The notes under the pieces: generated by a model | What the model was told of the DNA's origin: nothing | Database searches by the model: none | The model's input: the letters and a program-made list of their open reading frames with translations, nothing else | NCBI GenBank assembly: GCA_001822835.1 | Contig: MHSS01000014.1 | Location: forward strand, 1-55,093 | Length of the DNA stretch: 55,093 bases | Direction of reading: 5' to 3' | DNA from: Candidatus Terrybacteria bacterium RIFCSPHIGHO2_01_FULL_48_17 | GTDB taxonomy: Bacteria; Patescibacteriota; Minisyncoccia; Terrybacterales; 2-01-FULL-58-14 | Shown: piece after piece, positions 165 to 20,723 of the stretch | How positions within the stretch are numbered: the stretch's first letter is position 1 | How the letters are laid out: each line of letters starts with the position of its first letter | Translations under genes and position numbers: made by a program

Positions 165-1289
165 TTAGCGCTTCAAGCGCCTGCGCAGAAATGAGGGAAC
201 CTCAAATGGATCTTCTTCTTGTTGCTGCTCCCCTTCTTTATATACCTGGACCCGCGGCTGCGCGGTAAATTCTGCCTCATCCCTCATCGAATCGGCGACC
301 ACAAGGGGTTCCCGCTGGCCTTCTTTGCCTATTTTCTCTGAAAGCCCCGTTGCGATAACCGTTACGCGCACCTCATTTTTGCGCAATGAACGGTCTACTA
401 AAGCGCCAAAGATAATCCGCGCTTCTGGATCGGCCGACTCTGTAATGGCCTTGGCGATTTCATTTACATCTTGCATCCCAAGGTCTTTTGATCCCGTAAC
501 CGTAAAGAGAATTCCGCGGGCACCCTCCATAGAAGCGTCCACCAAGGGGGAGGAAACAGCGGCTTTTGCCGCTTGTACGGCCTTCCCTTCGCCCACAGCC
601 CTCCCAAGCCCCAGAATGGCAATGCCGGAGTCAGCCATAATGGTACGCATATCGGCAAAGTCAACATTTATAAGGCCCGGAACCGTGATAACGTCAGAAA
701 TCCCCAAAACCGCGTTTTTCAAGATGTCATTGGCGGCACGAAAGGCCGAAAGCAATGAGGTTTTACGGTCAATGGTATCCAAAAGCTTATCGTTCTCAAT
801 AGTAACGATTGCATCAACGTTTTTGCGCAATTCATTCCATGCCTCGGTTGCGATACGAGTCCGCTGATGCCCCTCGAACGCAAAGGGAAGCGTCACTATG
901 GCTACGGTAAGTGCGCCGTTTTTCTTTGCAAGCTCAGCAATAATCGGGGCTGCTCCCGAGCACGTTCCCCCACCCAAGCCGCCGGTTACAAAAACCATGT
1001 CGGCGTCTTTTACGTGTGCTGCGATCTCCTCCCGACTTTCTTCCGCAGCACGACGGCCAACCGCAGGATCCATACCCGCCCCAAGGCCCCGCGTAAGATC
1101 TTTGCCGAGCCGCAGCTTTTTATGGGCCTGTGCGGCATGTAAGTCCTGCGCGTCGGTATTCATAGCGATAAGCTCGACATTACGCGCTTTTGTCGAAGTC
1201 ATATAGGTTACGACGTTATTGCCGGATCCCCCCACGCCCACAACTTTTATATTGGCGAAGTTTTCGTATGGTGGTTTTACAGAAGGCAT
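165..1289 (-). CDS. ftsZ: Cell division GTPase FtsZ
   Basis: 374-aa ORF with tubulin/FtsZ signatures VVGVGGSGNN and GGLGGGTCSGAAPIIAE (GGGTGSG-type loop). Located 6 nt downstream of ftsA. Confidence 0.97.
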   Translation of the reverse strand: MPSVKPPYENFANIKVVGVGGSGNNVVTYMTSTKARNVELIAMNTDAQDLHAAQAHKKLRLGKDLTRGLGAGMDPAVGRRAAEESREEIAAHVKDADMVFVTGGLGGGTCSGAAPIIAELAKKNGALTVAIVTLPFAFEGHQRTRIATEAWNELRKNVDAIVTIENDKLLDTIDRKTSLLSAFRAANDILKNAVLGISDVITVPGLINVDFADMRTIMADSGIAILGLGRAVGEGKAVQAAKAAVSSPLVDASMEGARGILFTVTGSKDLGMQDVNEIAKAITESADPEARIIFGALVDRSLRKNEVRVTVIATGLSEKIGKEGQREPLVVADSMRDEAEFTAQPRVQVYKEGEQQQEEDPFEVPSFLRRRLKR

Positions 1290-1295
1290 ATGTTT

Positions 1296-2540
1296 TTAGG
1301 GAAGCAACGAACGAAGAAATCCTTTCACCGTTTTTGAAACATCCTTTGGGAGTCCAGGAAGGGAAATGCGCGTAAGGCCTCGTGAGGCCCTCTTTGAAGA
1401 TGAGTCCTCCAAGGCAAGCAACACAACGCCAACGGGAGTCGCAAACGCCGGATCTTGTCGTATTTCAAGCGGCCCCCCTTTTATGTTTGGCATTCCCACG
1501 GCTGCGGGAAGCTTTAGGCGGGCTTTTGCTAAATCGGCAAGCTGGGGAATGCCGGACGACCCACCGCCCAATACAATGCCGCCGGGCAAAAGGCGCGCCC
1601 TTCCAATACCCTCCAATTCTTTTGCCAACAAATCAAAAATCTCAAGCAATCGAGCTTCAATTATTTCTCCAAGTTGTTTGCGGGTAAACGATCCGGTCCC
1701 GTCGGGAAGGTCAAGCATTTCGCGCTTGCCGCCAGTTCGTGCAATGGCCAAACCGTGCGCATGCTTTAACTCTTCGGCAAGCTCAATGGGAATGCGTAAG
1801 CCAATTGCAATATCATTTGAAATATGTGCACCACCTATGGGAATGATCCCTGCATGCAGGCATCGCCCCTCTTCAAAGACAGAAAAGTCGGTCGTTCCGG
1901 CACCAAGATCAATAAGCATCGTCCCAAGTTCTTTTTGGCGCGGCGTTAAAACTCCACGGGCTGCGGCAAGAGGAGCTGCTACAAATGCTATGGGGGTGAT
2001 GCCCGCTGCCCCCAGTGCCTCTTCAAGGGAACGCAAATGCGAAGTAGAGACGGCAATAATAAGGGCCTCCAACTCAAGACGCACCCCCCGCATACCGCGC
2101 GGATCACGCACGCCATTTTCCCCATCTACGATAAAATCGCGCTCCAATACATGCAATACTTCGCGGTTTGCTCCGATTGCAGCTGCCTGCGCCGCGTCTT
2201 GCACGCGCCGCACATCTTCTTCCCCTATCTCACCATCAGCGCGCGCAACCGCAACCAATCCTCGTGCGGGAACTGACGCCAAATGCGCCCCGCTTACCGC
2301 AACCACGGCTTCCGATATCCGATCGTGAAGCTGCATTTCAAGTTCGCTGCGTAATGCCACGAGCGCCCGAGATGCCTCAGTTACGTCAACTACAACGCCT
2401 CTGCGCACGCCCGCCGAGGGAACCTTTGCCCATGCACCGACTTCAACACCGTCAGGAGAATGCTCTTCTGGTCGTACGGCGATACCGCGGAAAAATGACG
2501 AACCAAGTTCTATTCCGACAATAACATAGCCGCTACTCAT
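1296..2540 (-). CDS. ftsA: Cell division protein FtsA (actin-fold ATPase)
   Basis: 414-aa ORF with IVGIELGSS N-terminus, DLGAGTTD phosphate-binding motif and GGGSSGIPQL. Classic ftsA-ftsZ adjacency. Confidence 0.93.
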   Translation of the reverse strand: MSSGYVIVGIELGSSFFRGIAVRPEEHSPDGVEVGAWAKVPSAGVRRGVVVDVTEASRALVALRSELEMQLHDRISEAVVAVSGAHLASVPARGLVAVARADGEIGEEDVRRVQDAAQAAAIGANREVLHVLERDFIVDGENGVRDPRGMRGVRLELEALIIAVSTSHLRSLEEALGAAGITPIAFVAAPLAAARGVLTPRQKELGTMLIDLGAGTTDFSVFEEGRCLHAGIIPIGGAHISNDIAIGLRIPIELAEELKHAHGLAIARTGGKREMLDLPDGTGSFTRKQLGEIIEARLLEIFDLLAKELEGIGRARLLPGGIVLGGGSSGIPQLADLAKARLKLPAAVGMPNIKGGPLEIRQDPAFATPVGVVLLALEDSSSKRASRGLTRISLPGLPKDVSKTVKGFLRSLLP

Positions 2541-2977
2541 AAAAGTTTGTGGACAAAAAACTGCTCAAAACGCTCCATGCACGCAGCTGTTTTATCGGTA
2601 TCATGTTCAAATCCTTTCAAGTGCAACATACCATGAATAATCAATTGTGCAAGATATTCTTTTGGTGTCTTCGTAAACTGTGGCGCCTCTTGCGAAATGA
2701 CCGAAGGGCATAAGAGAATATCCGCCACAACTCTTCCCCTACGAATATCCTGAATGTAGGGAAACGTAAGCACGTTCGTTGCTTTTCGTTTTCCTAAAAA
2801 ATCGCGGGAAAGCCGTTGCATTCTTTTTTCCCCAAGAAACGCTACGGTGATATTCCCGCTGCGAAACCCCAATTCCTTCGCCACAGCCCGAACAAGAACC
2901 CGAATAAAACGGATGCTTGCAGGTGCGCGCACAGTACAGATTATTTCGGCGGAAAACGTGTCAGCGTTCTTCTTCAT
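2537..2977 (-). CDS. ybeY: Endoribonuclease YbeY (rRNA maturation factor)
   Basis: Zinc motif HGMLHLKGFEHD (HxxxHxxxxxH) near the C-terminus. The 190-aa track ORF is trimmed to Met45 (ATG ending at 2977) because its upstream part overlaps rpsU. 4-nt overlap with the ftsA start. Confidence 0.85.
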   Translation of the reverse strand: MKKNADTFSAEIICTVRAPASIRFIRVLVRAVAKELGFRSGNITVAFLGEKRMQRLSRDFLGKRKATNVLTFPYIQDIRRGRVVADILLCPSVISQEAPQFTKTPKEYLAQLIIHGMLHLKGFEHDTDKTAACMERFEQFFVHKLL

Positions 2978-3188
2978 TAAGTTTCCCGAGTTTTTCAAGC
3001 CACTCATGTTGGCGGCGCAGCTCTTCGCGTCGCAATGCCGAATTCCTTCTCTGATTCCTTGATTTTTGCCGAGTGAAAAATTTTGTTTTCTTGGCTTGCA
3101 AAATAACACCCGTCTCCTGAACGCGTTTTGTAAATCGCCGAATCAGCGATCCGGAGGTCTCACGATCTTTTCGAACTACATGCACCAT
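2961..3188 (-). CDS. rpsU: 30S ribosomal protein bS21
   Basis: 75-aa Lys/Arg-rich product (VVRKDRETSGSLIRRFTKRVQETGVILQAKK...). ATG at 3188 is preceded by AAGGAGGG 6 nt upstream. Confidence 0.9.
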   Translation of the reverse strand: MVHVVRKDRETSGSLIRRFTKRVQETGVILQAKKTKFFTRQKSRNQRRNSALRREELRRQHEWLEKLGKLNEEER

Positions 3189-3253
3189 AAATATCCCTCC
3201 TTCCACAATAAATCATAAATGAAAAACGGCAAATGAATAAAAATATCTGGGGG

Positions 3254-3601
3254 TCAGGGCAATTCCCTGTTATCCTCTTCCTTCCATCCGCCCAGCACAT
3301 GAACATGCAAATGATCAATAATCTGCCCCCCTCCCCGCCCTACGTTCATTACCACCTTAAAACCGGACTCGGCAATCCCTTGCATGCGCGCGATATCAGC
3401 GGCGGCGGAAAAAAGGTTCCCCAGAATCTCTCGGCGTGATGCGTCGGTGTCAACCAAGCTCACAATATGCTGGCGCGGAACAACCAAAATATGCACCGGG
3501 GCTTTAGGATGGATGTCTTTGAAGGCAACAAGCTCCTTCGTTTCAAAAATAATATCTCCTTTTTGTCCGCGATTTATAATTTCGCAAAAAATGCACCCCA
3601 T
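3254..3601 (-). CDS. HIT-family nucleotide hydrolase (HinT-like)
   Basis: 115 aa with histidine triad HLHVHVLGG. Confidence 0.9.
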   Translation of the reverse strand: MGCIFCEIINRGQKGDIIFETKELVAFKDIHPKAPVHILVVPRQHIVSLVDTDASRREILGNLFSAAADIARMQGIAESGFKVVMNVGRGGGQIIDHLHVHVLGGWKEEDNRELP

Positions 3602-3619
3602 AGCACCGTAAAACGCATA

Positions 3620-4939
3620 TCAACTTTTATTTACTCGCGGTTTAATTTTTTTCAGGCGTTCCCGAATTTCTTTTACGATATCTTCCCGGGCAACCGTTTC
3701 TTGAGTCCCATCACCCATAGTACGCAAAAGCGCTGTTCCTTCAAGCGCTTCTTTTTGCCCTACGATTAACACAAAAGGAGCGCCTATCTTATCGGCAACT
3801 CGCAGTTGGGATTTAATAGAGTCGCGCCCAAAGGATGCGCGCGCGAGTATCCCGGCTTTCCGCAAATCCTCAAACAAAAGCATCGCTTGATGTTTTGCTT
3901 TCTCCCCAAGTTGCGCAACAAAAACTATAGGCACTTGGGGATGCGCGATTGCCCCTGCCTCGCGGGAAAGCGCTGCGACAATGCGCTCAACGCCTCCCGA
4001 CCCGCCAATCGCCCCCGTGTCTTTTGCGCCAAATTGCTTCATTAAAAGGTCGTAGCGGCCTCCGGCAACCATGGCTGATTGCGCTTTAGGCAACGCCCGA
4101 TCCTCCCCCAGCGCCTCCTCTTCGGGCACAACCTCAAAAACCGTTCGATTATAATAATCAAGGCCCCGAACCAATTTGGTATTAAACACATATGGCACGG
4201 TAAGCTCATCTAAAAACCCCAAAAGCCCCTTGAAGTGTTGCCGGCATTCTTCGCACAGATGATCTATAATTTCTGGGGCATTCATAGCAATTCTTTGGCA
4301 GCGTTCATCCTTACAATCCAAAACCCGCAAAGGACTGGTTCCGAGGCGCTTTCTAGAGTTTGCGCAAAGCTGTTCCTTCCTGCTACGCAAATATCCTCCC
4401 AGCACCTTTTTAAAATACGGGCGGCATTGATTGCAGCCAAGCGAATTAATTTGCAGAGCCGTGTGGTGCAGACCCAACGTTTCAAGCGTTACGGCCAATA
4501 CACGAATTATCTCTACATCGGCCGACACGTCCTTATCGCCCAAAATCTCAAAACCAAACTGCCAAAACTGTCTAAAGCGGCCCGCCTGTTGCCGCTCATG
4601 CCGAAACATTGGGGAAAAATACCAAAGTTTTACCGGTTGCGGCCACGTCTTCATGCCATGTTGTACATAAGCGCGAACCACGGGTGCTGTGCCTTCCGGT
4701 CGCAACGCAAGCCTATCTCCCCCTTTTGTACGCAACGTATACATTTCTTTTTCAACAATATCGGTTGTCTGCCCCAATCCTTTCGAAAAAAGCTCCTCAA
4801 ATTCCAATACCGGCGTTTCTATCCTTCCAAAATCATATGCTTGCGCAACCTCGCGCACCGTATCGTATACACGATTCCACAAGGCCTCATCCTTGGGAAG
4901 AATATCGTGCATACCGGGTGGTGTTTGAAATTTAGGCAT
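3620..4939 (-). CDS. hisS: Histidine--tRNA ligase
   Basis: 439 aa with class II aaRS/HisRS blocks LRPEGTAPVVR, FRHERQQAGRFRQFWQFG and GGRYD. C-terminal anticodon-binding-like region. Confidence 0.95.
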   Translation of the reverse strand: MPKFQTPPGMHDILPKDEALWNRVYDTVREVAQAYDFGRIETPVLEFEELFSKGLGQTTDIVEKEMYTLRTKGGDRLALRPEGTAPVVRAYVQHGMKTWPQPVKLWYFSPMFRHERQQAGRFRQFWQFGFEILGDKDVSADVEIIRVLAVTLETLGLHHTALQINSLGCNQCRPYFKKVLGGYLRSRKEQLCANSRKRLGTSPLRVLDCKDERCQRIAMNAPEIIDHLCEECRQHFKGLLGFLDELTVPYVFNTKLVRGLDYYNRTVFEVVPEEEALGEDRALPKAQSAMVAGGRYDLLMKQFGAKDTGAIGGSGGVERIVAALSREAGAIAHPQVPIVFVAQLGEKAKHQAMLLFEDLRKAGILARASFGRDSIKSQLRVADKIGAPFVLIVGQKEALEGTALLRTMGDGTQETVAREDIVKEIRERLKKIKPRVNKS

Positions 4940-16080: not shown

Positions 16081-17808
16081 ATGTCAACGATGGAAGAGTT
16101 GCTGCAAAAAATATTGGATGCGTGGGGTAAACGCACACAAGATGACCGCGAGCTTGTTTCCCGCGCCTTTACATATGCAGCCAGTGCTCACCAAAAACAA
16201 AAACGGGAATCGGGCGACCCCTATCTTATACATCCGGCAGCGGCAGCACAAACATTAGCAAAAATGGGGCTGGACGCCGCAACCGTTGCCGCAGCCTTGC
16301 TGCATGACGTCGTAGATGATACGCCAACAACAAACGAGGACATAAAACGCGGTTTTGGAGACGAAATCGCGTTTCTTGTTGCCGGAGTTACTAAGCTTGG
16401 AAAAATAAAATACCGGGGAGCCGGAGGGAAAACCGAAGCAGGCATACAACGACAAGCAGAAAACCTACGCAAGATGTTTCTTGCCATGGCAGAGGACATT
16501 CGTGTGGTGTTAATTAAGCTTGCAGACCGACTGCATAACATGGAAACACTCAAGGCCTTACCAGAACGCAAGCAGCACCGCATCGCACTTGAAACGCTGG
16601 AGATTTATGCCCCGCTTGCCGGACGGCTCGGAATTGGGGAGTTAAAAGCAAAACTCGATGATCTCGCGTTCCCCTATGTGTATCCAAATGAATATGACAC
16701 GCTCATTCGCGAAGTCCGCGAAGCATATGCGGAACGGGATAAGTACTGTGAGAAAATATTGCCTATTGTTTTAGAAACCCTGACGGGTTCGGGTATTAAG
16801 ATGGTCTCCATACATGCCCGCGCAAAGCACTATTTTAGTTTATGGCTAAAGTTGCAACGTCTCGGTGGAGAGCTTTCCAAGGTCCACGATTTAGTGGCGC
16901 TACGCATTGTGGTGCCGACTGTGGCTGATTGTTACGAGGCGCTTGGGATATTACATAAACGCTGGAAGCCGCTGCCGGGACGCATTAAGGACTACATTGC
17001 AGTACCCAAACCCAACGGCTACCAGTCGTTGCACACAACCGTCTTTTGCGAAGACGGCCGGATCACGGAGTTTCAAGTGCGTACGCCCGAAATGCACGCA
17101 CAAGCAGAATATGGTATTGCGGCACACTGGGCTTATACGGAATCGGGTAAAAAAGCCGTTGCGGTGCATAACCGCTTCCGCTGGGTCCAGCAACTCCGTG
17201 ATTGGCAAAAGGAGGTTGGCGGAACACAAGAATTTTTAGAGTCGCTGCGTATCGATTTTTTCCGAGACCGTATTTATGTTTTCACCCCAAAGGGTGAGGT
17301 TTTGGAATTGCCCGAAGGAGCAACCCCCATTGATTTTGCGTATCACGTGCATTCGGAAATTGGAGACAAAGCAGTTGGTGCGCGCGTTAACGAAAAATTT
17401 GTGGGGCTGGATGCGCCCTTGGCAAACGGCGACGTTATCGAAATTCTCACCCAAAAAGGGAAAAAACCGTCTGCCAAATGGCTTGAAATTGCAAAAACGA
17501 CTGCGGCACGACACCATATCAGAAGGGCGCTCAGGGACCAGGGTATTGAAGTTGCTTCTCCTCTGCCGCAATCATTGCGTGCCGAAGTGACGCTTGAGGC
17601 AGGAGACCGGGTGGGACTTATTAAAGACGTCTCAACAACTGTTTCGCGCGCGGGATTTAATATCGTCAGTATTGAAGGTCGTGGCAAAGGAGAAAGCGGC
17701 GACATGCATCTTATTGTAAACATACCGTCACGCGATGCCTTAAAAAAACTTTTGGAGCGGATCAAAAAAGTAAAAGGAATACTGGAAGTCACGGGAAGAA
17801 TTGTATAG
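16081..17808 (+). CDS. relA: Bifunctional (p)ppGpp synthetase/hydrolase (RelA/SpoT homologue)
   Basis: 575 aa with HD hydrolase HDVVDDT, synthetase RIKDYIAVPKPNGYQSLHTTV, TGS block IYVFTPKGEVLELPEGATPIDFAYHVH and a C-terminal ACT-like domain. Confidence 0.95.
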   Translation: MSTMEELLQKILDAWGKRTQDDRELVSRAFTYAASAHQKQKRESGDPYLIHPAAAAQTLAKMGLDAATVAAALLHDVVDDTPTTNEDIKRGFGDEIAFLVAGVTKLGKIKYRGAGGKTEAGIQRQAENLRKMFLAMAEDIRVVLIKLADRLHNMETLKALPERKQHRIALETLEIYAPLAGRLGIGELKAKLDDLAFPYVYPNEYDTLIREVREAYAERDKYCEKILPIVLETLTGSGIKMVSIHARAKHYFSLWLKLQRLGGELSKVHDLVALRIVVPTVADCYEALGILHKRWKPLPGRIKDYIAVPKPNGYQSLHTTVFCEDGRITEFQVRTPEMHAQAEYGIAAHWAYTESGKKAVAVHNRFRWVQQLRDWQKEVGGTQEFLESLRIDFFRDRIYVFTPKGEVLELPEGATPIDFAYHVHSEIGDKAVGARVNEKFVGLDAPLANGDVIEILTQKGKKPSAKWLEIAKTTAARHHIRRALRDQGIEVASPLPQSLRAEVTLEAGDRVGLIKDVSTTVSRAGFNIVSIEGRGKGESGDMHLIVNIPSRDALKKLLERIKKVKGILEVTGRIV

Positions 17809-17812
17809 GGCA

Positions 17813-17848
17813 ACAAAAAACAGCCGCCAACGGGCGGCTGTCTTTTAT
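17813..17848. terminator. Bidirectional terminator (relA / parB)
   Basis: AAAAAAA-ACAGCCGCC-AACG-GGCGGCTGT-CTTTTAT, 9-bp GC stem. Confidence 0.85.
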
Positions 17849-17855
17849 AAACATT

Positions 17856-18743
17856 TTAGTGAAGCAATTTTTTAAGAATTGCCGCAAGCTCTTCCTTGGT
17901 CTGATAAATAAGAGCAATAGATCCCTTCTTGCCTCGACGGGTAATGCGAACCGGAATACCCAGCGCCTTACGAAGCCGATCTTCAAGGCGTGCGCGCTCT
18001 TCTGACGCCTCGCGCACAGGAACGCGCCGCATTATTTGAAGTTGCCGCGCTGCTGCCTCTGCTTCGCGGACCGAAACGGAATTTTCTTTAAAATGCCGGA
18101 AAAGATAATCCCGCTCCTCTTCTGCCACAGAAAGCAGTGCGCGGCCATGGCCTTCCGACAGCTCCCCTTTCCTGATGCTTTCTTTTATTTTAGAATCAAG
18201 CTCCAAAAGCCGCATTGTGTTTGATATGGCAACGCGCGAAAAACCGACGCGTTCAGCAATTTCTTTTTGCGAAAGTTCAAATTCATCTTGTAATTTCTTA
18301 AATGCTTCTCCGCGATCAATGGGATTTAAGTCCTCGCGCTGGATGTTTTCGACAAGCGATAACAAAAGGCGGGTGCGATCATCGCGCGCTTTACGGATGA
18401 TAACCGGCGCTTGCCGTATATTCACCAATTTTGCTGCACGCAACCTCCGCTCTCCCGCGATAAGACGGTATTCCATCTTCATGCCGTGCTTTGTCGGAAT
18501 TTCAACTTTCTCAACAATCAATGGTTCTAAAATTCCATGCTCACGGATAGAAGCGGCCAGCGTTGCAATGCCTGCTTTTTGAAATTCTTTCCTGGGCTGT
18601 TCGGGGTTCGGCTTAATCTCGTCAACGTCCAACCAAAACACGCCGTCTTCGCCGGCTTTCCGTCCTGTACCCTGTCCCCTATTTACTGTACCCTTTTTAT
18701 GTTTTTTCCGAATAAGCGATTGTAATCCTCGGCCAACAACCAT
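17856..18743 (-). CDS. parB: Chromosome partitioning protein ParB/Spo0J
   Basis: 295 aa with N-terminal GRGLQSLI, ParB box GERRLRAA and HTH QKEIAERVGFSRVAISN. Confidence 0.93.
   Translation of the reverse strand: MVVGRGLQSLIRKKHKKGTVNRGQGTGRKAGEDGVFWLDVDEIKPNPEQPRKEFQKAGIATLAASIREHGILEPLIVEKVEIPTKHGMKMEYRLIAGERRLRAAKLVNIRQAPVIIRKARDDRTRLLLSLVENIQREDLNPIDRGEAFKKLQDEFELSQKEIAERVGFSRVAISNTMRLLELDSKIKESIRKGELSEGHGRALLSVAEEERDYLFRHFKENSVSVREAEAAARQLQIMRRVPVREASEERARLEDRLRKALGIPVRITRRGKKGSIALIYQTKEELAAILKKLLH
18705..18743 (-). repeat. parB 5' end, duplicated copy 1
   Basis: 18705-18731 is identical (27/27) to 19659-19685. The 12 nt up to each ATG match 8/12. Confidence 0.9.
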
Positions 18744-18764
18744 AAATAATTAATCTCTAAGCTC

Positions 18765-19697
18765 TCATTTCTGATTGCTAAAATTCTTCTTTCTTTTTCT
18801 CCAAACAATATATGCAATTAGCGCACCGGCAATCCCGCCCCCGATTAATAAAACATATCGTATTATAGTTGACGGATTTATAGTATAAACGTCGCGCGGG
18901 AAAGTTGTCACATAATCATAGCTACCGGGAAATAGAATTTCCTGATCCGCAACGGTCACGACGCCATCCGCGTCCACGTCAGCAAGAGGGTTATAGCCGA
19001 GGTCATTTCGTCTCTTGCCTAAAGCCTGCTGGAAAAGAGCGGAGTCCGCGTCGTCGCACTGACCATCCGTATTCAGGTCACAAGGCATTGTCTCCAATTC
19101 TTCCATTCTTGTTGCCTCTCCTCTCTCTACCGCCTTATAGGTAGTAAAATGTTTTGCCGTAAAGACCAGCTCTTTTGCCGATTGATTCCAAAGCTTATCC
19201 TTAATATCTTCCGGAGTTGCCAGCTTTCCGTCTACCTCAATGGCCGGCTCCTCCTCAAACGGAAGGTTGCGCATAGTAATATTCGCCCGCTTATTTCTTA
19301 GATACGTAAGCGATTCGGAGTCAACGGTGACTTCACCTGTTTTATCAAGCTGAATATAGGTATCTAAATTATTTATCGTATTGGTATCGCACATATCAAT
19401 AATCGAATCATGGAACTCAACCTTATTCTTGCCCGACACATCGAGAACAATATTAAGTGCTTCTCCTAATGTGCAAACCCTAGTGAAGTTGGTTGTTTCA
19501 GATCCGGGCAGCGTAAATATCCCCGGTGGCGCTACTGCGATTATCTTTATACCGGGACCTGCCGGATCAAAATTGGAGTTATCGCCAAAATTAATTTCTG
19601 CATTCGCAAAAGAAATAGAGATCAAAAAGACAACAACCGCCACAAAGAAACGAGGCAATTTCCGAATAAGCGATTGTAATCCTCGTCCGACTGCCAT
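18765..19697 (-). CDS. Secreted/anchored protein with dockerin-like Ca-binding repeats, inserted between parA and parB
   Basis: 310 aa. The N-terminus MAVGRGLQSLIRK copies ParB. It continues with signal-peptide-like FFVAVVVFLISISFANA/E, loops DLNTDGQCDDAD and DVDADGVVTVAD, and a C-terminal TM followed by KRKK. Confidence 0.75.
   Translation of the reverse strand: MAVGRGLQSLIRKLPRFFVAVVVFLISISFANAEINFGDNSNFDPAGPGIKIIAVAPPGIFTLPGSETTNFTRVCTLGEALNIVLDVSGKNKVEFHDSIIDMCDTNTINNLDTYIQLDKTGEVTVDSESLTYLRNKRANITMRNLPFEEEPAIEVDGKLATPEDIKDKLWNQSAKELVFTAKHFTTYKAVERGEATRMEELETMPCDLNTDGQCDDADSALFQQALGKRRNDLGYNPLADVDADGVVTVADQEILFPGSYDYVTTFPRDVYTINPSTIIRYVLLIGGGIAGALIAYIVWRKRKKNFSNQK
19659..19697 (-). repeat. 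parB 5' end, duplicated copy 2 (start of the inserted gene)
   Basis: See 18705-18743. Encodes MAVGRGLQSLIRK versus ParB MVVGRGLQSLIRK. Confidence 0.9.
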
Positions 19698-19717
19698 AAA
19701 AATAGAATAAGCATTCC

Positions 19718-20524
19718 CTATTCCCCACTTGCCCCGTACCGAACTTGTTCTGGTGCGGGGTTCCCTGTTCCCTCATTTAATATTTCTCTTGCTAACGCAT
19801 GGAATGTCTGCGCAATATCGCTTTCTGGGTGAGTAATTACCACTGGCCGGTTTATAAATGGCGCCTCGGCAAGTAATGGATGTTTGGGAATGATGACCTC
19901 GAAAACCGGGTGCGCTCCTCGCCACAATTCTTTTGCCACGCGCATTGCGGTTCTATTATTGCGTTCGTGCATAGTAAGAAGCGTTCCACGAATAGCTGTT
20001 GGAATATCGAGGTTTTGCTGAATAAGATTAAGCGTCTCCACAAGCTGACGCAAGCCATCAAGGGCAAAGGGAGAGGGGCTTACCGGCACAATAACCTCAT
20101 CAGCAGCCGCCAGCGCATTTACTGTCAAAATGCCCAGCGACGGCGGACAATCTACAAGAACAAAATCGTAGTCACCCTTTATGTCCTCGAGCGCTTGACG
20201 AAGCAAAAGTTCGTAGTCCTCAAGCTCAAAAAGCTCAACAGTAGCTCCGGCAAGCTCGGGGGTAGCGGGCAAAATGTCAAGATTTTCTTGCGGGCCTTGT
20301 ACAATAGATTCACGCGCCGAAACTTGCCCAATTAATACATGATACAACGAAGTTGCAAGAGATTCCGGGGCTATACCCAAAAGCGTGGTGGCATTTGCCT
20401 GCGGATCTGCATCAACCAGCAAAACCCGTTTACCCTGTGCTGCAAGCGCAGACGCCAAATGCACTGCCGTTGTGGTTTTCCCTGTTCCTCCTTTTTGGTT
20501 TGCAATTGCAATAATTTTGGCCAC
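19718..20524 (-). CDS. parA: Chromosome partitioning ATPase ParA/Soj
   Basis: 268 aa with deviant Walker A KGGTGKTTTAV and DCPPSLG. GTG start. Confidence 0.95.
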   Translation of the reverse strand: MAKIIAIANQKGGTGKTTTAVHLASALAAQGKRVLLVDADPQANATTLLGIAPESLATSLYHVLIGQVSARESIVQGPQENLDILPATPELAGATVELFELEDYELLLRQALEDIKGDYDFVLVDCPPSLGILTVNALAAADEVIVPVSPSPFALDGLRQLVETLNLIQQNLDIPTAIRGTLLTMHERNNRTAMRVAKELWRGAHPVFEVIIPKHPLLAEAPFINRPVVITHPESDIAQTFHALAREILNEGTGNPAPEQVRYGASGE

Positions 20525-20551
20525 ATAGATAGTGTATCATGCGTAAAGACC

Positions 20552-20580
20552 TTGGCAATAAAAAAAGAATCTGATAGAGT
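20552..20580 (+). promoter_or_regulatory. Candidate promoter for tRNA-Leu
   Basis: TTGGCA (20552-20557), 17-nt spacer, TAGAGT (20575-20580). Lies 20 nt upstream of the tRNA. Confidence 0.45.
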
Positions 20581-20599
20581 AACTGAAGTAACTTTAAAT

Positions 20600-20686
20600 G
20601 CCGGAGTGGCGGAATTGGCAGACGCGCAGGACTCAAAATCCTGTGACCGCAAGGTCGTGTGGGTTCGACCCCCACCTCCGGCACCA
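20600..20686 (+). tRNA. tRNA-Leu(CAA), type II with long variable arm, CCA encoded
   Basis: Acceptor GCCGGAG/CTCCGGC. Anticodon stem CAGGA/TCCTG with loop CTCAAAA. Variable arm GACCGCAAGGTC. T-arm GTGGG-TTCGACC-CCCAC. Discriminator A plus CCA. Confidence 0.93.
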
Positions 20687-20697
20687 ATTCTCCGAAA

Positions 20698-20723
20698 ACG
20701 GCTCCATGAGCCGTGTTTTATTT
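20698..20723 (+). terminator. Terminator after tRNA-Leu
   Basis: Stem ACGGCTC/GAGCCGT, loop CAT, followed by GTTTTATTT. Confidence 0.8.

Follow-up and report, generated by a model that had tools for sequence, protein, structure and literature searches.

The subject of this analysis is the chromosomal partition operon parA-parB in a single stretch of DNA, contig MHSS01000014.1 of Candidatus Terrybacteria bacterium RIFCSPHIGHO2_01_FULL_48_17 (assembly GCA_001822835.1), which was analysed over its whole length of 55,093 nucleotides (nt) and is referred to here as the window. In this operon the two partition genes are separated by a 933-nt open reading frame (ORF) for an exported protein, and this ORF begins with a second copy of the parB 5' end. 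The window is contig C14 of a genome of 865 kb in 16 contigs that is 98.7% complete (G000); other handles in G denote genomes of relatives (G001 onwards) and those in L denote loci of relatives. The order on the minus strand is parA, ORF, parB, and the features that the argument draws upon are given below.

20531-20558, minus strand: candidate sigma-70-like promoter upstream of parA (TTGCCA-16-TACACT), a consensus match only, with a site count not above shuffle expectation.
19718-20524, minus strand: parA, 268 residues, a Walker-type ParA/Soj ATPase (Pfam AAA_31 at 6.7e-63, CbiA, MipZ).
19712-19777, minus strand: dispersed hairpin or heptamer-word element forming the ParA C-terminal tail NEGTGNPAPEQVRYGASGE and stop codon, recognized by its other genomic copies.
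19659-19700, minus strand: upstream copy of the duplicated parB 5' block, TTT followed by the 13 codons that start with ATG (repeat comparison).
18765-19697, minus strand: inserted ORF, 310 residues, with a chimeric signal peptide, a two-cysteine beta-rich ectodomain, a dockerin-like module and a transmembrane anchor.
19654-19695, minus strand: predicted mRNA hairpin that begins at the G of the ATG and ends a little beyond the fusion junction (folding energy).
19599-19697, minus strand: putative signal peptide, ORF residues 1-33 (inspection and the conserved cleavage column of the family alignment).
19128-19598, minus strand: conserved family domain, ORF residues 34-190 (family alignment).
18933-19079, minus strand: dockerin-like module, ORF residues 207-255, PCDLNTDGQCDDAD ... 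DVDADGVVTVAD (Pfam score and family alignment).
18801-18866, minus strand: C-terminal transmembrane anchor IIRYVLLIGGGIAGALIAYIVW, then RKRKKNFSNQK (sequence, alignment and a predicted helix at residues 275-309).
18705-18746, minus strand: downstream copy of the duplicated block, where parB now starts (repeat comparison).
17856-18743, minus strand: parB, 295 residues, intact, with an N-terminal ParA-binding motif (Pfam ParB_N, HTH_ParB and ParB_C).
18650-18704, minus strand: parB linker directly after codon 13, an in-frame array of the heptamer words GGGTACA / GGGGACA.
17815-17846, both strands: bidirectional terminator-like hairpin after parB, convergent with relA/spoT.

The domain set of a chromosomal parAB system is complete on one strand, with a Walker ATPase ParA and a ParB comprising ParB_N, a helix-turn-helix and a C-terminal dimerization domain (Pfam). 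An earlier, sequence-only reading of the window had drawn attention to the 933-nt ORF between the two genes and to its repeat of parB, and both were borne out by direct comparison. The exact repeat covers 27/27 nt (18705-18731 and 19659-19685), 8/12 positions match over the 12 nt counted from each ATG, and 38/42 nt (90%) are identical across the extended block. As had been argued, a repeat of 27 nt is not a chance event; 100 shuffles gave 0 matches, and the whole 865-kb genome holds these two copies only. The ORF starts with MAVGRGLQSLIRK and ParB with MVVGRGLQSLIRK, of which 12/13 residues are identical, the single difference being a conservative A/V change accompanied at the nucleotide level by two synonymous changes. 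The claim that the first 13 codons of the ORF repeat the ParB N-terminus is thereby upheld, and no other ORF in the genome has an N-terminal G[RK]GLxxL[IL] motif. No significant similarity was detected further upstream of the two ATGs or downstream of the repeat, and a longer duplication was rejected on this ground. The ATG of the ORF lies 20 nt past the parA stop codon, at the ancestral position of the parB start, while the present parB is preceded by a 21-nt spacer that arrived with the insert.

The inserted gene belongs to a family of exported proteins, 29 homologues of which were recovered by database search (E 1e-78 to 5e-44). These share an ordinary signal peptide, a beta-rich domain of ~155 residues, a variable linker, a transmembrane helix and a basic tail. 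Their conserved block runs from (Q/E)INFGDN to AKHFTTYKAV, with C75 and C103 invariant, and the ORF retains 22/22 invariant family columns. Within the family a ParB peptide at the start is confined to the window protein and its near-identical copy P0001, the N-termini of the 29 homologues being unrelated to it. By inspection, the signal peptide of the ORF consists of an n-region MAVGRGLQSLIRKLPR (charge +4), an h-region FFVAVVVFLISISF and a c-region ANA|E, which together present the charged n-region, hydrophobic h-region (7-15 residues in this type) and A-x-A site of a Sec-type signal peptide, without a lipobox cysteine. The n-region is made up of the ParB-derived MAVGRGLQSLIRK plus LPR, whereas the h-region and ANA|E are native to the family. 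The cleavage context is A-x-A before Q-INFGDNPNFD, and ~26/29 homologues have small-x-small, commonly [AS]-x-A, before Q/M/H. The architecture outlined in the sequence-only reading (h-region with ANA/E, a domain, two loops and a C-terminal transmembrane anchor) was present in all its parts, the domain being conserved and measuring ~155 residues and the anchor being followed by RKRKK. An AlphaFold2 model built with the family alignment had a mean predicted local distance difference test (pLDDT) score of 73, with most of residues 81-200 above 90 and a helix at each end. The fold search that had been proposed for the domain came back empty, as Foldseek against the PDB gave no match at E <1e-3 (best E 3.9e-3, TM-score 0.14), and there was no NCBIfam match for the ORF.

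The dockerin-like module (residues 207-255) is an insert unique to the window protein within the family. The two D-x-[ND]-x-D-G loops that had suggested the name are present by eye, however, the assignment itself is borderline, with Pfam Dockerin_1 scoring 22.2 bits by hmmscan against a cut-off of 22.9 and 24.8 bits in a six-frame search of the genome. The region has low pLDDT in the AlphaFold2 model. Like a type I dockerin (PF00404), it has two D-x-[ND]-x-D-G-x-x-x-x-x-D loops ~35 residues apart and a threshold-level score; unlike one, it lies within a membrane-anchored protein of the Candidate Phyla Radiation (CPR), has a cysteine pair in loop 1 and falls 0.7 bits under the hmmscan cut-off. 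A similar module (48% identity) occurs in an unrelated secreted protein of G265. The version with the cysteine pair (PCD-x-N-x-DG-x-C ... PLAD-x-DADGV) is shared by secreted CPR proteins that are not otherwise related, its occurrences being window 18933-19079 (minus strand), G000:C13:94603-94737 and L038:1039-1914. The GC content at third codon positions (GC3) is 0.55 in the module, above the 0.42 of the remainder of the ORF.

No member of the family was detected in the 40 class-level relatives searched, a survey of 400 genomes of the phylum yielded distant matches only, and the GTDB representatives that carry the family are two metagenome-assembled genomes of Saccharibacteria. Because the gene is absent from those 40 relatives and present in these two Saccharibacteria, its distribution is patchy and it was probably acquired horizontally. 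Its GC content (0.441 vs a genome mean of 0.484, standard deviation 0.03) and its GC3, which is within range, are not decisive for a foreign origin. Of the homologue loci inspected, 0/8 were near parA or parB. Two further accounts of the insert were considered and set aside. The first, a habit of the family of copying the start of its downstream neighbour, was scanned for at five homologue loci; only L046 matched (22/28 at two ATGs), through a lysine-rich n-region common to other family members that looks like chance. The second, a transposable element or integron cassette, was rejected as the insert is a single ORF that lacks terminal inverted repeats and any transposase or integrase domain.

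The direction of the event is given by relatives. In 19/19 class-level relatives with parA near parB the two genes directly adjoin, as had been assumed from the usual operon, and G001, of the same family as the window's genome, keeps the synteny tRNA-parA-22 nt-parB-relA. ParB relatives found by protein search were named as Parcubacteria, Azambacteria and Sungbacteria, and the best ParB match among the metagenome contigs of the Joint Genome Institute (JGI) was 43%. The two closer lineages, L146 and L147, also came from the protein search, made with ParB; at ~80% amino acid identity and 73-77% nucleotide identity, they stand about as far from one another as from the window's genome. In L147, whose ParB is ~80% identical, the site is empty, with parA, a 45-nt spacer and a parB beginning MVVGRGLQSLIRKKKK. 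L146 (ENA ERZ27254752 k141_2017559, 1025-3702) carries HATPase_c and STAS/DUF4325 genes at the parA-parB junction on a contig from the same sample as one contig of the window's genome. This insertion lies in the parA 3' end; parA has gained a new short end, ALAKEVLGETDRNS, and the STAS gene continues in-frame into what was the parA tail, REILSEGTGNPAPEQVRYGASRE, a stretch that matches the parA tail of the window at 74/78 nt. Independent insertions at the junction are thus found in two sister lineages, each fused in-frame to the end of a partition gene. The operon of the window is usual in its domains, orientation and ParB motif, with the tRNA-Leu and relA synteny kept in G001, but differs from other parA-parB (soj-spo0J) operons in an unrelated third gene that is absent from the 19 class-level relatives and from L147, L146 having a different insert at the same junction.

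These comparisons also settle how the two readings offered earlier relate to one another. Insertion with a target duplication of ~40 nt is supported by the adjacent parAB of the relatives, by the empty L147 and by the alignment of the junctions, where the ATG of the ORF occupies the ancestral start position behind a 20-nt spacer (22 nt in G001). Capture of the parB translation signals by the ORF follows from the same evidence, and the two readings are not alternatives. An unrelated N-terminus and the lack of a flanking duplication in relatives that have the gene had been listed beforehand as an outcome that would count against the observation; this is indeed what was seen, however, it argues for capture and not against what was observed.

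Both sides of the insertion are occupied by repeat elements. The last 19 residues of ParA (NEGTGNPAPEQVRYGASGE) plus the stop codon are an in-frame copy of a dispersed element, other core copies of which lie at C5 72032-71995 (92% over 38 nt), C8 40506-40480 (96% over 27 nt) and C5 8573-8535, and this tail is absent from the ParA of L147. The heptamer array AGGGGACAGGGTACAGG in the parB linker has many dispersed genomic matches, and the arrays that L146 and L147 carry in its place are different ones. The parB linker is thus a hot spot for heptamer-word elements and hypervariable between lineages. Because the heptamer arrays start directly after codon 13, the insertion point is the border between a conserved motif and an element-occupied hypervariable linker. 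The flanks of the insertion thus resemble dispersed heptamer-word hairpin elements, being in-frame copies or arrays of them, while the inserted ORF itself is no such element. We infer that these elements promoted the rearrangement.

Two other duplicated gene ends were observed in the same genome. A tatD-like gene has a second copy of its 3' end, the two lying at G000:C2:71670-71783 and 72285-72398, 615 nt apart, with 55 nt exact followed by ~70% identity, and the copies flank an ORF for a secreted protein of 153 residues (71829-72290). With a stop codon of its own, the orphan copy can still be read as an intact TatD C-terminus, much as an imported or displaced allele would be. Elsewhere on this contig, two neighbouring secreted or anchored proteins of 199 and 233 residues, otherwise unrelated, share an exact leader segment of 54 nt encoding ATTIALAAAIIMEDAQPK (G000:C2:59611-59684 and 60819-60892).

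The explanation we favour, at a probability of roughly 0.7, is a lineage-specific duplicative insertion of a horizontally acquired gene for an exported protein after codon 13 of parB. The gene of this C-terminally membrane-anchored protein would have entered parAB just past that codon, with ~42 nt of parB (-3 to +39) being duplicated during insertion. In the sequence, parB is intact behind its new 21-nt spacer, and the ORF, which is without a start and n-region of its own, is fused in-frame to the original parB start. One transcript, running from the candidate promoter of parA through to the hairpin past parB, would cover the three genes, as suggested by the finding of no terminator-like site between parA, ORF and parB on the minus strand. 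Translation of the ORF would begin at the ATG of the old parB initiation region, and residues 1-16 (13 ParB residues plus LPR, charge +4) would make up the n-region of a Sec signal peptide. Cleavage after ANA would then release a surface protein held by its C-terminal helix, and because the h-region and the ANA|E site are the family's own, the mature protein should lack the ParB-derived peptide. The hairpin over the start codon and fusion junction probably keeps translation of the ORF low.

This is a combination of known processes, insertion with duplication and gene fusion, at a junction that is a recurrent hot spot, and neither a new system nor a new partition mechanism. The locus is like the target-site duplication of an insertion sequence or transposon in that direct repeats of the target flank a discrete insert. 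Such duplications usually measure 2-14 bp. The repeat in the window is 42 nt long, its copies are unevenly diverged, and the insert has no terminal inverted repeats, transposase or integrase. What the locus offers is a base-resolution record of a foreign gene settling in an essential operon without harming it, as one copy of the block keeps parB intact and the other gives the newcomer a proven translation start and, by luck, a positively charged n-region. Together with two further duplicated gene ends in this genome, the in-frame insertion that L146 has at this junction suggests that gene ends bordering hairpin or word-repeat elements are recurrent entry points for surface-protein genes in reduced CPR genomes.

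Several points weigh against this explanation. The differences between the two copies are not spread evenly; codons 2-4 differ at four positions, being GCA GTC GGA upstream and GTT GTT GGC downstream, whereas codons 5-13 match throughout, also at synonymous sites. The third position differs in 3/3 codons of the first group vs 0/9 of the second (Fisher p ~0.005, calculated post hoc), which is not the pattern predicted by one recent duplication with neutral drift thereafter. Moreover, for codon 2 the upstream copy shares GCA with the parB of L146, and the downstream copy shares GTT with the parB of L147, which hints that the two copies may trace to different alleles. Signal-peptide cleavage and co-transcription are also steps that we infer.

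One possible account of the uneven divergence is tuning of ORF translation. The start hairpin has a predicted fold energy of -20.2 kcal/mol (z -2.1), and the ensemble energy is -20.9 kcal/mol vs -16.9 with the parB codons swapped in. The actual sequence ranks 5/128 among codon variants, the opening energy at the ORF start is 14.0 kcal/mol vs 7.5 for parB, and four of the four substitutions relative to the parB copy strengthen the hairpin in the ORF context.

Another account, which we consider tentatively as a minority possibility, is that recombination with a diverged relative shaped the locus in place of one in-situ duplication. In one version, a circular or one-end-anchored fragment containing the cassette and a homeologous piece of the parB 5' end integrated by crossover in the 27-nt core. 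In a second version, an L146-like neighbour supplied, after insertion, a replacement for the tract from the parA tail to the first codons, and the core is where this exchange ended. Consistent with either, identity falls abruptly from 100% to ~67% at the core edge, GCA and GTT are both codon-2 alleles of parB in sister lineages with each copy in the window matching a different one, and the L146 contig shares a sample with a contig of this genome. With L146, the upstream copy shares 37/39 nt (at the parB start) and the parA tail 74/78 nt, where the background identity is ~75%. The tatD case likewise combines an exact core with a diverged flank, and its intact orphan tail is as expected for an imported allele. 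However, 39 nt is too short for firm allele assignment, the identity of the parA tail is also explained if it is a copy of a dispersed element, and the four substitutions can be read as hairpin tuning instead. The version with a circular fragment, which is of the Campbell type, further requires a donor ORF that already carries a parB-like start, leaving the origin of the fusion unexplained. The known processes nearest to this are Campbell-type single-crossover integration and homology-facilitated illegitimate recombination (reportedly from work by de Vries and Wackernagel in 2002). The locus resembles them in having an insert bounded by two recipient-homologous copies with an exact core and a diverged flank, as does the tatD locus, but differs in that only 27-55 nt of exact homology are involved.

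The captured peptide could have a function of its own, as ParB contacts ParA through just this region. The motif by which ParB binds ParA is formed by aliphatic residues and a central R/K at the extreme N-terminus, [LI]G[RK]GLxxL[IL] (PMC12462528). Analogous activator peptides are found in PomX, ParG and MinE, and single peptides are >10-fold weaker than ParB dimers (PMC12462528). This literature supports the earlier statement that GRGL marks the conserved ParB N-terminal region tied to ParA stimulation, and the ORF agrees with the consensus, having GRGLQSLI at its extreme N-terminus. This stretch is sequence-identical to the ParA-activating peptide of ParB, central arginine and hydrophobic positions included. 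Unlike the ParB peptide, which is followed by a flexible linker and the ParB/Srx domain, that of the ORF is followed after 5 residues by the h-region of a signal peptide, and it would be monomeric and is probably cleaved off. No ParB domains were found in the ORF (Pfam), where the motif runs straight into a hydrophobic helix.

Among the 40 class-level relatives, 10 have a ParB that lacks the N-terminal GRGL motif, and a search of those genomes for ParA at E <= 1e-20 found none (genomes G004, G008, G009, G017, G020, G021, G023, G024, G027 and G030; loci L013-L015, L019-L022, L026, L027 and L030). Every relative with ParA retains the ParB motif, although these genomes are not phylogenetically independent. 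Because the 10 genomes with a motif-less ParB have no ParA, the motif seems to decay when it is unused.

A functional peptide would mean that an uncleaved or precursor form of the protein displays GRGLQSLI at the cytoplasmic face of the membrane, where, being made from the partition operon itself, it could tether, titrate or locally activate ParA and in this way connect chromosome partition with an envelope protein. We regard this as improbable. In its favour, the motif is complete and matches the ParB motif at 12/13 residues, with one A/V and two synonymous changes, it occurs among the 40 relatives only where ParA exists, and the predicted topology puts the N-terminus of the ORF in the cytoplasm. 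However, the signal-peptidase site of the family is conserved, and so the peptide should be cleaved and degraded; the motif stands only 5 residues from the membrane helix; single peptides are far weaker than ParB dimers; and the start codon of the ORF lies within a strong hairpin. The in-frame capture of the parA tail by the STAS gene of L146 looks incidental, and the 27 nt are identical at synonymous sites too, which leaves too little time for selection to be seen. Overall, contact of the ORF N-terminus with ParA is unlikely and not favoured, and we would expect this natural construct, which places a ParA-binding peptide on a membrane protein, to be inert. A bolder proposal, to which we give slightly less credence again, is that the peptide is no passive relic and acts as a membrane-tethered ParA activator or titrator, produced inside parAB and linking nucleoid-bound ParA to the envelope, and, relatedly, that the 954-nt unit of repeat and ORF can excise and re-integrate at the conserved parB 5' motif of related genomes by homologous recombination. 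If true, nucleoid-bound ParA would be coupled to the envelope in a very small cell, and the 954-nt unit would be a single-gene cassette aimed at the start of an essential gene.

Translation of the ORF could instead start from an in-frame TTG at codon 14 to give MPRFFVAVVVFLISISFANA, which reads as a canonical short signal peptide with textbook n-, h- and c-regions, and the parB segment would then be an untranslated leader. This is very improbable, since the ATG sits exactly at the working parB start, with the original 20-nt spacer before it, no stop codon interrupts the in-frame duplication, and no Shine-Dalgarno-like sequence stands at a usable distance before the TTG.

The arrangement itself recurs in other assemblies. 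Exact-protein look-ups found ParB in 20 contigs and the ORF in 21, with several different samples and assemblers represented (two JGI assemblies, MEGAHIT k141 contigs and ANAN16 scaffolds). Gene order and identity are known for the 8 contigs displayed, the remainder being known by exact protein match; parA(268)-ORF(310)-parB(295)-relA was the order in 8/8, and all of these were 100% identical to window 17700-20700. A short scaffold, L036 (ENA ERZ28564339 scaffold_95791), is 99% identical to the window locus but has a 10-nt deletion at 20046-20055 that frameshifts parA and a 9-nt in-frame deletion at 19632-19640 in the h-region of the ORF signal peptide. Both deletions are bounded by short direct repeats, and L036 is either a minority variant or an assembly error. 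That two loci were joined artificially through the 27-nt repeat might be suspected from a metagenome-assembled genome, from a repeat that flanks the insert and from the two deletions of L036, but such a chimera is effectively refuted because independently assembled contigs carry the locus, with the exact proteins in at least 20 contigs of different samples and assemblers, a MEGAHIT k of 141 that far exceeds the repeat length and the 8 contigs with one gene order and 100% identity over 3 kb, and a parB sequence of 27 nt inside the ORF would be needed all the same.

Some minor observations concern the operon as a whole. Although parAB is complete, the canonical parS palindrome TGTTTCACGTGAAACA had no match at <2 mismatches in the whole genome and none within 3 mismatches in the window. 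The possibility that the repeat is itself a parS site was rejected, as the window has no parS-like site and the genome no match closer than 2 mismatches. Lastly, two promoter-like sites (10/12 matches each) lie inside the 3' end of the inserted ORF (18862-18911, minus strand), 120-170 nt upstream of parB, and from these a separate parB transcript could arise, their count being not above chance.

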